DNA of 42,231 nucleotides from Ionaspis alba (lineage: Eukaryota), in assembly GCA_964255285.1 (NCBI GenBank), contig CAXUUL010000057.1, positions 1 to 42,231 of the forward strand, read 5' to 3'. Below, in pieces: positions 14,805-19,452 of this stretch. Within the stretch, counting starts at the first letter, position 1, and the number at the start of each line of letters is the position of its first letter. The notes beneath the pieces were generated by a model. It was not told the origin of the DNA and searched no databases. It was given only the letters and a program-made list of their open reading frames with translations. Position numbers and translations under genes: made by a program.

Positions 14805-16923
14805 ATGACTGGAGGCAGAGTGGCGTCGGCTCCCCGTGGAAGGCGGGAACGTCCGTGTGATGCCTGCCGCAAGCGCAAGAGCAAGTGTGTGGTCACCGAG
14901 GGACAGAAAAGATGTGCAGCATGTGCAGTTCACTCTCAGGAGTGTACGTATGTCGAGGAGCCTCAACCGAGGAAGAGGAGAATGGATAGCGATGGCAAGG
15001 AGTCTGAACTGTCTAAGCGAAGGTATGTCCATCTATCGACAATGTCATACTTGAGACAGGATGTTGATCAGCCTTCCAAAACAATAGATCGACGGTATCT
15101 TCGTCAACTGGCGCTACAGCTTCTTCTACAGACTTGAGGGTCGACACTGCCCCTTCGTTCGACACCGTTTCAACGTCGTCTTCCTCAACAGAAAAACATC
15201 GAAAACCATCACATTACTACAGCACTCATATTGGCCCTACCACCGAGATCGAACCAATTCTACTGGATCTATCTATAATGAATGGCAATACCTCTCCCGG
15301 GGACATGTACGAAAAGCATGATGGTCGAACGGCATTCTTGGTCGACCAATTGGAGGCGGAGAGGATTCGAGAATCAAAGTCGACAGCTTTGGAACAAGTG
15401 GAACAAGCCGTGCGCTCGCATGGCGCCGCCCTCCTACGAATTTACCTAAACACCACCCACAGCAATTTCCCCATGATTGAGGACGACTTCTTTTCCGATT
15501 ATTTCGAAGGCAACATTGCGAATTTGGACCCCACTTTACTTGCTGCCATATATGCACTGACACTTCCATGGTATGCCAGAGATGCTGTCGAGCCTGGTTC
15601 CATAATACCGGACGGTATCCGACTAGAAGATCTTGCTTTCAAACTCTTTGGTGACTCACTATCTAAACCAACCTTGTCGACTATACAAGCTGGAATATTG
15701 CTTATGCAAAGACCAAATGTCGACTCGAAGACTCTGAACACCCAGCTCGTGGCTGCAGCATATGAGCTGGGTCTCCACCTCGATTGTACCTCCTGGACTT
15801 CTCCAGCTGGAGATAAAGGGTTGCGCAAAAGACTGGCCTGGGCCTTGTATATGCAAGACAAATGGTGTGCTCTAATACATGGCCGACCGTCCGCGATTGT
15901 TCAGAGCAATTGGGCTGTTCGCAGTCTCAATGATGAAGACTTTGACAATAAGGTAATGAGCTCAGATGCAGATATCCCCGAAGAAGAACTCGAACGAGGT
16001 TGGGCACTATTCAAGCACATGGCTAGCCTTACCGAGATCCTCTCAACTCTACTAGACACTTTCTACACACTACAAGCGATGCAGGAGGTCGACGATGCTG
16101 GGCAAGGCGGAACGCGACTCATTCTCGAAAGGGCAAAGCCAGTCCAAATACGGCTCAAAGCATGGTTCGCCGGTTTACCAAGCAACCTCAAGATGGACAA
16201 CACTATGACGGGCAAGCCATCCTCCACAGGTAACGAACCACGACCACACTCATCCTCCTTCATTCTAACCCTCTTCCAGGCTACCTCCACCTTTCCTACT
16301 TCGCCACCGAAATTACCCTCCACCGCTGCATCATCCGCTCTCTCGAGCCCGAAAACGGCGACCAATACCTCACCCACATCTGCCGCGCCGCTGCCAAAAC
16401 CCGCCTCATCTCCGCGATGGACTTCGTCAATCGCCTTCGCGAAGAACACCTCAATGCTTTCTGGTACTTCCCTTCCAAAGTCAATTTCGCTCTCATCGGC
16501 ACCTTTGGCAGCCTCCTCCTCGCTACCGCTCCCTGCCAAGAAGAAGTCGATTTCTACCGCACCCGCCTTTCTGAGTATCGGTGGACTCTTAGTGCTAGCA
16601 GCAAAACAGCTGATTTCCTCACCTTCGCCGTCGACTCCTTGGACTCGTCGAATAGCTTATTGAAGAATCTACCAAGAAGGCCGTCGACGAATGAGTTCTC
16701 GGCACAATTTACAACAGCGATGCCCCGACAGAGGATATCTCCGCCCCAGGATGAGATGATGACGGAGGCGCCACCGATGCATTTGGGTCAGCTGCCGCAT
16801 ATGCAGGGAGGTGGGAGAGAGGCGAATGCTTCGGGGTTGGTGTCGCCGTCGACGTCGACGTCAAGTGGGTCGACGAGCTATGAGGCTTATGCTGAGGCGT
16901 TTCCTATTCAGCGGCAGAGGTGA
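14805..16923 (+). CDS. Zn(II)2Cys6 transcription factor with fungal-specific TF domain (DAL81/TamA-like family)
   Basis: CDACRKRKSKC..CAAC......C cluster. Introns 15023-15087 and 16230-16279. Motifs AYELGLHLDC, RKRLAWALYMQDKWCALIHGRP, GYLHLSYFATEITLHR. Confidence 0.92.
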
Positions 16924-17701
16924 CCATGCGGTGGAGCCGCGGGTCCTGGGTTCATTCCTCCTCGCCTCTCCCAGGATGCAGGAGGATCAGTATCATATGT
17001 GCATTGAGGACAAGGACCTGGGATAAGGTCGTCTTTACGAAATCTCTCCGGCGGCGAGGCTGCAAAGTCATTGCACCTGACTTTATCGATTGACGTATTT
17101 TCCGGTCAACTATCATGGAGACTGGCTTCTACTGCCCTCTTCGTGTCATTGTCAGACTCGATTGGAACTGTCTTTGGTGACAGGGCCGCATGTTGTTTCG
17201 AGATATCCACCTTAATGTCCATCATACAATATCCCATCTCCAAAATCTCATTCCTGCCTTGAATCTTTACGGTTACCGGAACCAGTCCTTGTTCTTCTCT
17301 CGTGGAACTCTTCCAAGATTGTATTCGGGCGGGCGAGGATACAAAAGAATCTCGCAGAAATTTAACCGCACAAGTTTCGGGCAATGCAGATCCCAGGGTT
17401 TATAATGTTTCAACAACGACCATGCCTATAGCGATACCCATTTTTCCTTTTTGACATTGGAGCTAGCAGCATGATATGATGATCTCGATTTGGGCAATAG
17501 GATCAGATGAGCTACTTGAGCGTGTTGGCATGAATCGACAGTGGACGATGTGATGCTTAGAATGATATAGATTGATGTTAGTGTAGAAAGTCACGATTTG
17601 ACGTGAATAGCGATGACCTCATTGGACGAACCCTAAATTGTTTGTGAGACCACGACTTGGCCGCTTTGTATATCCCTTCAATCATTCCACTAATATTTTA
17701 G

Positions 17702-19452
17702 ATGAAAGCTTCCTTTACCTGTTCCACCCTCTCGCTGCGACGTCTTGTATACACATGCAATAGACGCCCTTCCTACCCCATCTCCCTCTTATTCTACAGA
17801 GGTATGAAGCGGAAAGCCTTGGACTCGAACAACTCCGCCAAGCCTAAACGTGTGAAGGAGCCTCTACCAGATTACTGTGATGTTGAGATTCATAGAGATG
17901 AGCATGGCGAGATGGTGTGGCCGGCACCGGAGAAGGCGATGGAGAGAGCGAGGGATTTCTTAAGGGAATGGTATGTTCAATGAACATGCGATTTGATCTT
18001 GCTTGTGGAAAAATGTATGCTGGCATCGTTCTACATACTAAATATGCACACGTGAAAGTTCCTTCAATCATATATTTTGAGTCTGCTAGGATATATAACG
18101 CAAGTGTGGTATTTATACTGACTAGCATTTCTCAATAGTGCTGCTGCAAAGCAGAAGACGTTGATTGTGCCTGACAAAGATGCTGACGGCCTTGACGCTG
18201 GAGTCATTGTCTACAGGACTCTCACGACTCTAGGTCTTAAGCCTTGTTTGATTGATATCCATCTAGTTGGGAAGGGCACGAACATCCACGATGAACTGGA
18301 ACGGACAGCTATGAAGGCCAAGGAACCAAAGTATATCATCGTTGTAGATCAAGGCAGTCGACCTGCACCACCTGTCATTGACGATACAGAGGCAAAGGTT
18401 TTGATCATTGACCATCACCTTAGTGATGAGTTTCCGGAGCACGCTATCGTGAGTAACTTCTCCTAAAGACCCTATGCCTATGCGCATGCTCATTTTTTAT
18501 CAGATTGTCTCTGCTTGCCATTACCCGCCAGTGGCTACCTCTGCACTTCTGACCTATGAGATCTGCAAGCTTCTGCATCCTGATATTGTTTCATCATGTG
18601 CGTTTTTGTGCGCAATGGGTACACACGGTGACCTAGGGACGACTTTAAAATGGAAGCCGCCCTTCCCTGATATGGCAGAGACGTTCAAGCAGTATTCAAA
18701 GAAGGCAATAAATGATGCTGTTTCCCTCATAAATGCTCGTAAGCAAGCATCCTCCTCACCCCCCTTAATACTCGTACACGCTTTTGACACTAGTACAGCA
18801 AGACGGACGGCCAAATTTGACGTCATATCTGCATGGGAAGCACTTCTCGCAGCCAAAACTCCCAAGGACCTTCTCACCAATTCTCGTCTTCTTGAAGCCC
18901 GTGCCGAAATCAATGATGAGGTAGAGCGCCACACCCATGCAGCCCCGAAATTCAGTAAAGATGGCAAGATCGCCGTCCTGCGGATCAACAGTGGTGCCCA
19001 AGTCCATCCGGTCATCGCAACGAGATGGGTACCATATCTCCTACATATAGACCTTTTTCACGTGACTCAAGCTAAGTCCTTCACAGGCCGGCCACCTTCA
19101 GTCAAGAGCCCTCGAAATCGTCATGGTAGCCAACTATGGCTACTCTCCCGGTCTCGTCAACTTCTCCTGTCGTATCGCCCGCTGTGCCCGTTCTCGTGAT
19201 CCGCCGGTCGATATCATAGCCTCGCTCAAAGCGGTTGCGGACCTCGATACTTCGGATCTGAGGAAGAGAATGGGTGAGAGCTTTGCCAGAGGCCATAAGG
19301 AGGCTTCTGGAGGGATTGTACCTGTCAAGGACTTCGAAGAGTTGATGGCGTTGATGAAGGTGGGCGAGAAGCCGGATTCGGTGGAGAAGGTGGCGCCGAA
19401 GAAAGCTGCGGCGCAGAAGAATAATCTGATGAATTACTTTGGGAAACGGTGA
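17702..19452 (+). CDS. DHH family phosphoesterase (RecJ-like, DHH plus DHHA1-type domain), about 469 aa
   Basis: Exons 17702-17970, 18139-18448, 18504-18738, 18799-19028, 19087-19452. Motifs PDKDADG, VVDQG, IIDHH, GTHGD, NAPRR, RGHKEASGG. Second in-frame ATG at 17804. Confidence 0.9.

Follow-up and report, generated by a model that had tools for sequence, protein, structure and literature searches.

Which process could make use of a RecJ-like DHH protein that combines an intact active site with an N-terminus resembling a nuclear localization signal (NLS) and a C-terminus resembling a PCNA-interacting protein (PIP) box? The question is raised by a split gene of Ionaspis alba, located at 17702-19452 (+) in a 42,231-nt stretch of contig CAXUUL010000057.1. 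This whole stretch, read on the forward strand, is referred to as the window, and all positions are those of the window. The gene has five exons and four GT..AG introns and encodes a DHH/DHHA1 protein of 435 residues, or of 469 residues if translation begins at an upstream ATG. As judged from its sequence, the gene belongs to an unstudied, widely conserved eukaryotic family, here called 'mini-RecJ', whose bacterial relatives are tied to uvdE (the UV-damage endonuclease gene) and to DNA ligase. An earlier interpretation, made from the letters of the window and their translations (the sequence-only reading), had proposed an uncharacterised fungal nuclease or phosphoesterase, possibly of bacterial origin, recruited to PCNA for replication or repair. 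Its observation is confirmed and its interpretation is partly supported by the analysis presented here.

Enzyme class and gene structure

The 435-residue product contains all the named DHH motifs (DKDADG, VDQG, DHH, GTHGD and GHKEASGG), and the catalytic residues are invariant in 43 of 43 full-length homologues (alignment A1). Exon 2 matches Pfam DHH (PF01368) with an E-value of 3e-8 and 34.4 bits against a cut-off of 28.1, and homologues match it also. The DHHA1 lobe is indicated by the G-H motif GHKEASGG, which is invariant in the 43 homologues, and by the fold alignment, which runs through the RecJ DHHA1 lobe to model residue 406; the Pfam DHHA1 model falls below threshold on homologue P0038 (E 0.12, 13.3 against 25.9 bits). 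All NCBIfam matches are to RecJ models (TIGR00644 at E 1e-14 and archaeal RecJ at 2.5e-6). The TIGR00644 score is 53.8 bits against a cut-off of 396.9, and the match covers profile positions 38-184 only, which places the protein outside the RecJ equivalog. A profile search of the PDB returned RecJ-type chains only: 8y30 at 2.3e-8, also 1ir6, 2zxo and 5f54, and then archaeal RecJ/GAN.

The AlphaFold model has a predicted local distance difference test (pLDDT) value of 84 and a predicted template modelling (pTM) score of 0.82. In the comparison table, bacterial RecJ chains have values of 27.4-25.1 (325-343 residues aligned), the archaeal PAP phosphatase 8a8k 25.8, HAN 22.4, archaeal RecJ 19-22, Cdc45 14-21 and NrnA-type proteins 15-18. 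By sequence profile and predicted fold, the nearest kin of the protein is the catalytic core of bacterial RecJ.

Seven true RecJ proteins, drawn from genomes that also encode a member of the family, were used for closer comparison. Profile-profile alignment to them gave a probability of 94.5% and an E-value of 7.9e-8 over 328 columns, with motifs I-VII in register. Family R240 corresponds to RecJ R270 (motif V), S341 and R343 correspond to S371 and R373 (motif VI), and H384 corresponds to H397. The motif V Arg and the motif VI S-x-R, aligned in this way with RecJ, are also invariant in the family. Arg280 (motif V) and Ser371 and Arg373 (motif VI) of Deinococcus radiodurans RecJ, together with Arg109, are described as binding the terminal 5'-phosphate and setting the 5'-3' polarity (PMC4846377). 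The two-metal active site of mini-RecJ and its 5'-phosphate pocket residues in motifs V and VI are, by these alignments, predicted to be intact. The motifs in register and the retained pocket residues argue for a RecJ catalytic core (DHH-linker-DHHA1) without the OB-fold and C-terminal domains. These domains are missing in that the protein stops ~30 residues past the DHHA1 lobe, and the alignments reach RecJ residues ~416-435 of chains that are 616-756 residues long.

Bacterial RecJ (TIGR00644; 2zxo, 1ir6, 5f54-56, 8y30), a 5'-3' single-stranded DNA exonuclease, has ~550-750 residues, whereas mini-RecJ is ~435 residues long and carries, in addition, predicted eukaryotic targeting signals and a PIP-like tail. 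Archaeal RecJ/GAN, RecJ2, HAN and Cdc45 show weaker sequence similarity to mini-RecJ than bacterial RecJ does, and mini-RecJ, unlike them, has no CID or insertion and no GINS-binding features. Each of the 5 bacterial genomes examined encodes a true RecJ in addition to the relative; the family is paralogous to RecJ and separate from RecJ proper.

The eukaryotic DHH proteins usually listed are Cdc45, which is inactive, and Ppx1/Prune. Cdc45, recognised by loss of metal ligands, a large insertion and a length of ~550-650 residues, was set aside, since mini-RecJ keeps all metal ligands. Membership of the Ppx1/Prune and NrnA groups was weighed and set aside as well. The sequence-only reading had described the DHH motifs as intact and the protein as neither Cdc45 nor Ppx1/Prune, and both statements are supported. 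It had also likened the protein to prokaryotic enzymes of the RecJ/NrnA type; the RecJ part of that likeness is borne out by profile and fold.

The features of the gene are as follows.

17702-17803 (+), upstream extension, in frame and 34 codons long; first ATG at 17702, with a stop codon at 17699-17701 just before it; putative mitochondrial presequence of the long isoform
17804-17970 (+), exon 1, counted from the conserved second ATG (MKRK...); residues 1-18 (17804-17857) are basic and resemble a bipartite NLS
17971-18138 (+), intron 1, 168 nt, GTATGT...AG
18139-18448 (+), exon 2; DHH motifs I (DKDADG, 18173-18190), II (VDQG) and III (DHH, 18410-18418)
18449-18503 (+), intron 2, 55 nt, GTGAGT...AG
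18504-18738 (+), exon 3; completes the DHH domain (motif IV, GTHGD) and opens the helical linker as far as INA of motif V
18739-18798 (+), intron 3, 60 nt, GTAAGC...AG; in frame and stop-free, so that it would be read through if retained
18799-19028 (+), exon 4; remainder of motif V (PRRT), helical linker and first DHHA1 strands
19029-19086 (+), intron 4, 58 nt, GTACCA...AG
19087-19452 (+), exon 5; DHHA1 with motifs VI (NFSCR, 19159-19173) and VII (GHKEASGG, 19291-19314), followed by a Lys-rich disordered linker, the tail and the stop
19414-19449 (+), C-terminal short linear motif QKNNLMNYFGKR, PIP-box-like; stop codon at 19450-19452

The exon model is taken as correct because annotated homologues (P0012, P0008 and P0007) align with it from the first to the last residue at ~77% identity and without gaps at the exon junctions in the displayed alignment. 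Retention of intron 3 was set aside, as the homologous proteins do not have the 20 residues that retention would add.

The C-terminal tail and the two candidate start codons

The protein ends in the 12 residues QKNNLMNYFGKR. Within them lies Q-K-N-N-L-M-N-Y-F, in which Q stands one residue further from L than in a canonical PIP box, and L-M-N-Y-F provides an h-x-x-a-a core at the extreme C-terminus. The tail is disordered in the model, with pLDDT <50 over residues 414-438. None of its Q, K, N, L, Y and F varies among the 43 close full-length homologues, and its general form, Qxxx[LI]xx[YF]F, is kept in all 43.

Tails were compared across 67 representatives of 50%-identity clusters with the DHHA1 motif, of which 41 have at least 40 residues after it. 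Canonical PIP boxes were scored as Qxx[LIMV]xx[FYW][FYWLM], shifted boxes as those with one extra residue after Q, and core-only motifs by the hydrophobic core. A PIP-like motif is present in 39 of the 41 long tails: 8 are canonical, 25 shifted and 6 core-only, against expectations from shuffled tails of 0.065, 0.035 and 1.05, respectively. No PIP-like motif is found in the 26 of 67 representatives with short tails, which are bacterial-like or truncated. The shifted form predominates again among 108 further fungal homologues (99 shifted, 2 canonical, 3 core-only, 2 with none, and 2 without the DHHA1 motif).

Canonical PIP boxes occupy the equivalent position in the Pleurotus, Cryptotrichosporon, Sorochytrium and Saitoella homologues, and the Chlamydomonas homologue has a near-canonical one. 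This repeated interchange between the shifted ('Q+1') box and the canonical box argues, short of proof, that both fit the same pocket. The core LSNYF, carried by some members of the family, recurs in the PIP box of DVC1/Spartan, for which a crystal structure with PCNA is reported (PMC7225939, Table 1), and PIP boxes without the glutamine are described there as still binding PCNA. The tail sequences thus compared suggest that the motif most likely docks on PCNA or on a PCNA-like partner.

The basic N-terminus, MKRKALDSNNSAKPKRVK at 17804-17857, consists of KR, 10 residues and PKRVK. The classical bipartite NLS is (K/R)(K/R)-X10-12-(K/R)3 of 5, a consensus that this stretch fits. K2 and R3 are invariant and M1, K4, A5 and R16 nearly invariant in the 43 homologues, and residues 1-19 are disordered in the model.

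An additional ATG at 17702 is in frame, 34 codons before the MKRK methionine. Mitochondrial presequences typically comprise the N-terminal 20-60 residues, are rich in R, S, L and A, and contain hardly any D or E. The 34 residues of the window extension include 6 basic and 0 acidic ones and are rich in R, S, T and L. Among 80 related fungal metagenome loci, 54 have a match that reaches the N-terminus, corresponding to 46 distinct loci. In 42 of the 46, an ATG opens an in-frame extension of at least 30 codons, against 0 and 6 of the 46 in the other two frames. The pooled composition of the 42 extensions (R 13.5, S 12.6, L 12.1, D 0.7 and E 1.1%; D+E 1.8%) is presequence-like. The conservation of the presequence-like extension at 17702 indicates that a purely nuclear picture of the protein is probably incomplete.

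The contexts of the two start codons differ. They were compared in the window and in 34 loci that have both the extension and an aligned second ATG; 8 loci with a non-ATG codon at that place were excluded. The first ATG has a pyrimidine at position -3 in 24 of 35 loci (T in the window), which is a weak context, and the second ATG has a purine there in 34 of 35, which is a strong one. Between the two starts, 29 ATGs are observed in the 35 loci, against 58.8 in shuffled sequence and ~78 in a region of the same length beyond the second ATG. None of the 29 is in frame, and 12 of the 35 loci lack intervening ATGs altogether. The pattern suggests leaky scanning or alternative transcript starts, which would yield a mitochondrial long form and a nuclear short form. 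The sole intervening ATG of the window (17755-17763) is out of frame and opens a two-codon reading frame, ATG CAA TAG.

Four divergent fungal members (P0126, P0132, P0171 and P0270; those named are Sphaerosporella and Sistotremastrum) have a presequence-like N-terminus and lack both the MKRK stretch and the tail. By their sequences they may be copies confined to mitochondria. The joint loss of the two elements suggests that the NLS and the tail work together.

The sequence-only reading had pointed to a fit with the bipartite NLS consensus, to the motif QKNNLMNYFGKR after a flexible linker and to an L-x-x-Y-F core with a shifted Q, and had named conservation of the tail in fungal homologues as a check. 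The predicted NLS holds up, its basic residues being conserved, and the motif is located at 19414-19449 in a disordered region. The check was passed, with the six residues named above invariant in all 43 close homologues. The view of the shifted Q as a deviation in one protein needs revision, the shifted form being the norm of the family. The start at 17702 stands as an in-frame ATG following a stop codon; it adds the conserved presequence-like extension, which that reading had left uninterpreted.

Distribution of the family and its genomic neighbours

A search with exon 5 returned 845 proteins at E <=1e-3; the database lacks the protein of the window itself, and the closest match is 79% identical. 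The named proteins among the best 120 of these 845 are all fungal and carry automatic names ('DHH family protein', 'DDH domain-containing'). When 1.84 billion cluster representatives were searched with a profile, 1577 matched at E <=1e-3 and 210 at E <=1e-30. Among the named members, Ascomycota are represented by many Pezizomycotina and by Saitoella (Taphrinomycotina), and Basidiomycota by Pleurotus, Tulasnella, Kwoniella, Tremella, Rhodotorula and Mixia. Members are also present in the chytrids Spizellomyces, Phlyctochytrium and Fimicolochytrium and in the blastocladiomycete Sorochytrium. Outside the fungi, members are found in the amoebozoan Planoprotostelium and in the green algae Chlamydomonas schloesseri and Myrmecia bisecta, and shorter members are found in bacteria, for example the 'DHH family phosphoesterase' of Corallococcus. 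The public model of the Psora testacea protein (P0082, 727 residues) joins an N-terminal methyltransferase domain to the DHH protein; this join is probably a merger of neighbouring genes and not a real fusion.

A quick maximum-likelihood tree was calculated from 71 rows: 38 labelled eukaryotic (22 with a eukaryotic organism name, 15 unnamed and the window model), 26 bacterial relatives, and the 7 true RecJ proteins as outgroup. The eukaryotic rows fall on one side of a branch with a Shimodaira-Hasegawa approximate likelihood ratio test (SH-aLRT) support of 96, and the RecJ outgroup is separated with a support of 100. The 26 bacterial relatives lie between eukaryotes and RecJ without resolved branching, and the tree fixes neither the root of the family nor the direction of transfer. 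Bacterial relatives thus do exist, as the sequence-only reading had supposed, and the eukaryotic proteins form one clade beside them. Its description of the enzyme as uncharacterised agrees with a search of open-access papers and preprints, in which no paper was found on the fungal family or on a link between a DHH protein and uvdE; its description of the enzyme as fungal is too narrow, in view of the algal and amoebozoan members. The only paper in this literature that contains both 'UVDE' and 'DHH' refers with the latter to the helicase DHH1 alone, and the UVDE-pathway papers that were found name no DHH protein.

The bacterial gene neighbourhoods are informative about function. They were collected from 79 loci in Myxococcota, Acidobacteriota, Cyanobacteriota, Actinomycetota, Planctomycetota, Methylomirabilota, Armatimonadota and others. 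In 33 of the 79 loci, from at least 6 phyla, uvdE is the immediate neighbour of the DHH gene, and Pfam PF03851 confirms the identity of all 33. The arrangement is divergent in 20 loci; uvdE lies upstream on the same strand in 6 and downstream on the same strand in 7. Further genomes without this adjacency encode uvdE elsewhere in 4 of 5 cases, against 4 of 14 control genomes. An ATP-dependent DNA ligase adjoins the relative in 6 of the 79 loci, and ruvAB precedes the DHH gene in one.

Ligase and DHH protein are also found fused. P0232 is a fusion of 919 residues that joins an ATP-dependent DNA ligase to the DHH protein, and such fusions account for 54 of 56 long-form search matches (P0232, P0410-P0462), which come from filamentous cyanobacteria where named. 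The fused proteins have 900-1030 residues, with the N, adenylation and OB domains of the ligase followed by the mini-RecJ DHH protein at the C-terminus. These neighbours and fusions back the role in DNA repair that had been suggested from the window.

Three other features of the bacterial loci were noted. In 20 of the 79 loci, all from Myxococcaceae (among L081-L102 and L135), the DHH gene is directly followed on its own strand by a DUF3105 gene. In a Chthonomonadaceae locus (L127:4624-5952, +), an open reading frame (ORF) of 443 residues without a Pfam match is situated between the ATP-dependent ligase and the DHH gene; no homologue of it was found in the other 78 bacterial loci. In three cyanobacterial loci (L116, L119 and L126) a DUF3140 gene lies upstream of uvdE and the DHH gene.

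The setting in Ionaspis alba is ordinary fungal nuclear DNA. Other genes of the window encode a sugar transporter, an F-box protein, a Zn-cluster-type transcription factor, a kinase, the 49-kDa subunit of complex I, an Rpb3-like subunit and a UBA3-like enzyme, and no repair gene cluster is present among these neighbours. The gene upstream of mini-RecJ, at 15068-16923 (+), has a Fungal_trans transcription factor domain; its frame changes between the overlapping ORFs 15278-16663 and 16417-16923, as an intron there would cause. In the 500 nt upstream of 17702, white-collar-type motifs (GATN..CGAT, GATCGA and GATA) do not occur above the window background.

Proposed role and alternative explanations

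The best explanation overall, whose chances we judge to be even, is that mini-RecJ is a 5'-end-trimming repair nuclease that acts between nicking and ligation, with PCNA-type docking and dual forms, and that it possibly serves the excision step of the UVDE pathway. Mini-RecJ would be a 5'-to-3' exonuclease or a 5'-end trimming enzyme on single-stranded or nicked DNA, acting in the interval between the nicking and the resealing of a strand. The long form, translated from the ATG at 17702, would be directed to mitochondria by its 34-residue presequence. The short form, translated from the ATG at 17804, would begin with the bipartite NLS, and its disordered tail would dock on PCNA or a PCNA-like partner and so recruit it to intermediates of repair or replication. 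Among candidate pathways, UVDE-initiated (alternative) excision repair is the most specific; in it, mini-RecJ may remove the damaged 5' end before gap filling and ligation.

UVDE is described as nicking DNA 5' of the lesion and leaving a 5'-phosphate and a 3'-OH (PMC6264785). Because the nick leaves a 5'-phosphate, a RecJ core with a 5'-phosphate pocket would be a natural candidate for this UVDE/Uve1-initiated pathway, whose tabulated downstream components include FEN1 and EXO1 (PMC6264785). Two further similarities are seen. UVDE is reported as known only from fungi, bacteria and a few archaea, with a patchy distribution (PMC8307549), and the distribution of the mini-RecJ family is patchy too. 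In Schizosaccharomyces pombe UVDE works in the nucleus and in mitochondria, and in Cryptococcus neoformans a long mitochondrial isoform arises from an alternative start (PMC3764193); the paired nuclear and mitochondrial, short and long isoforms of mini-RecJ, as predicted from sequence, would resemble this arrangement.

Mini-RecJ also resembles the PCNA clients with a terminal PIP box (FEN1, DNA ligase I and DVC1/Spartan) in its disordered terminus after a basic linker and in its h-x-x-[YF]-F core, and differs from them in that the Q of most family members stands one residue further upstream than in the consensus. In yeast, DNA ligase I exists in a nuclear and a mitochondrial form.

Several observations weigh against this explanation. 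In the tail, the canonical consensus Q-x-x-[LIM]-x-x-[FY]-[FY] is absent from the window protein, and the shifted Q, being the family norm (99 of 108 further homologues), could point to a partner other than PCNA. At the N-terminus, public gene models mostly begin at MKRK and include the extension in 12 of 63 cases only; the related loci share kinship, and the counts made on them are not independent events. In the pocket, the equivalent of Arg109 of the D. radiodurans enzyme aligns with Leu in place of Arg, with the invariant H97 and K101 nearby. The pathway assignment is weakened by the restriction of the uvdE linkage to bacteria: uvdE, ligase, ruvB and three other bacterial neighbours are absent by tblastn from the window and 80 fungal loci (421 kb). 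In one complete Corallococcus genome a relative is present without uvdE, and no Cryptococcus protein occurs among the best 120 Tremellomycete matches, though Cryptococcus has UVE1. A more specific version, in which the whole family, in bacteria, fungi, algae and amoebae alike, would serve the UVDE pathway as its dedicated 5'-3' excision nuclease, tethered to PCNA in eukaryotes by the 'Q+1' PIP box and also sent to mitochondria through the alternative start, is held tentatively and on the doubtful side.

It is unlikely, on present evidence, that mini-RecJ is a RecJ-like repair nuclease whose tail binds something other than PCNA, such as a Rev1- or Mlh1-type pocket, the 9-1-1 clamp or a fungal-specific factor, so that the likeness to a PIP box would reflect motif overlap. 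The shift of Q by one residue in the window and in the 99 further homologues would suit such a partner, and PIP sequences are reported to overlap the Rev1-interacting region (RIR) and Mlh1-interacting protein (MIP) motifs (PMC7225939). However, canonical Qxx[LI]xxFF boxes stand in at the same position in several distant lineages, an h-x-x-a-a core at a disordered C-terminus after a basic linker is typical of PCNA clients, and binding of the LSNYF core to PCNA is established for DVC1 (PMC7225939). The catalytic lobe raises a different alternative, namely a nanoRNase or 3'-phosphoadenosine-5'-phosphate (pAp) phosphatase, similar to NrnA or to the archaeal PAP phosphatase, that clears small phosphorylated nucleotides in nucleus and mitochondria and is not a DNA nuclease. 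This is improbable. The nanoRNases NrnA, Rv2837c, TM1595 and GdpP and the archaeal PAP phosphatase 8a8k were among the systems compared.

The two starts bear on a further alternative, that the protein is essentially a mitochondrial DNA-maintenance nuclease for the 5' ends of mitochondrial DNA, and that its basic N-terminus and tail have no nuclear or PCNA-related role. The extension kept in 42 of 46 loci agrees with this, as do the divergent members that keep just the presequence-like N-terminus. The conserved MKRK methionine, the basic stretch and a tail retained in 43 of 43 homologues would be hard to explain without a function. Use of the second start is in keeping with the strong Kozak context of its ATG (34 of 35) and with the depletion of ATGs between the two starts. 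Where the tail is lost, the MKRK stretch is lost with it. An exclusively mitochondrial role is, on this balance, very improbable.

If the trimming nuclease with dual forms is the correct explanation, eukaryotic DNA repair would gain a further nuclease, an active enzyme built on the RecJ core, conserved widely and bearing nuclear, mitochondrial and clamp-type tags. The linkage of its bacterial relatives to uvdE and ATP-dependent ligase would give it a concrete place, the removal of the damaged 5' end after the UVDE nick, a step for which the table in PMC6264785 gives only the general nucleases. UVDE itself has paired isoforms for nucleus and mitochondria, and mini-RecJ would be the second example of this in the UVDE pathway. 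For the study of PIP boxes, the family offers a natural series of 'Q+1' and canonical forms in which the tolerance of the motif may be followed.

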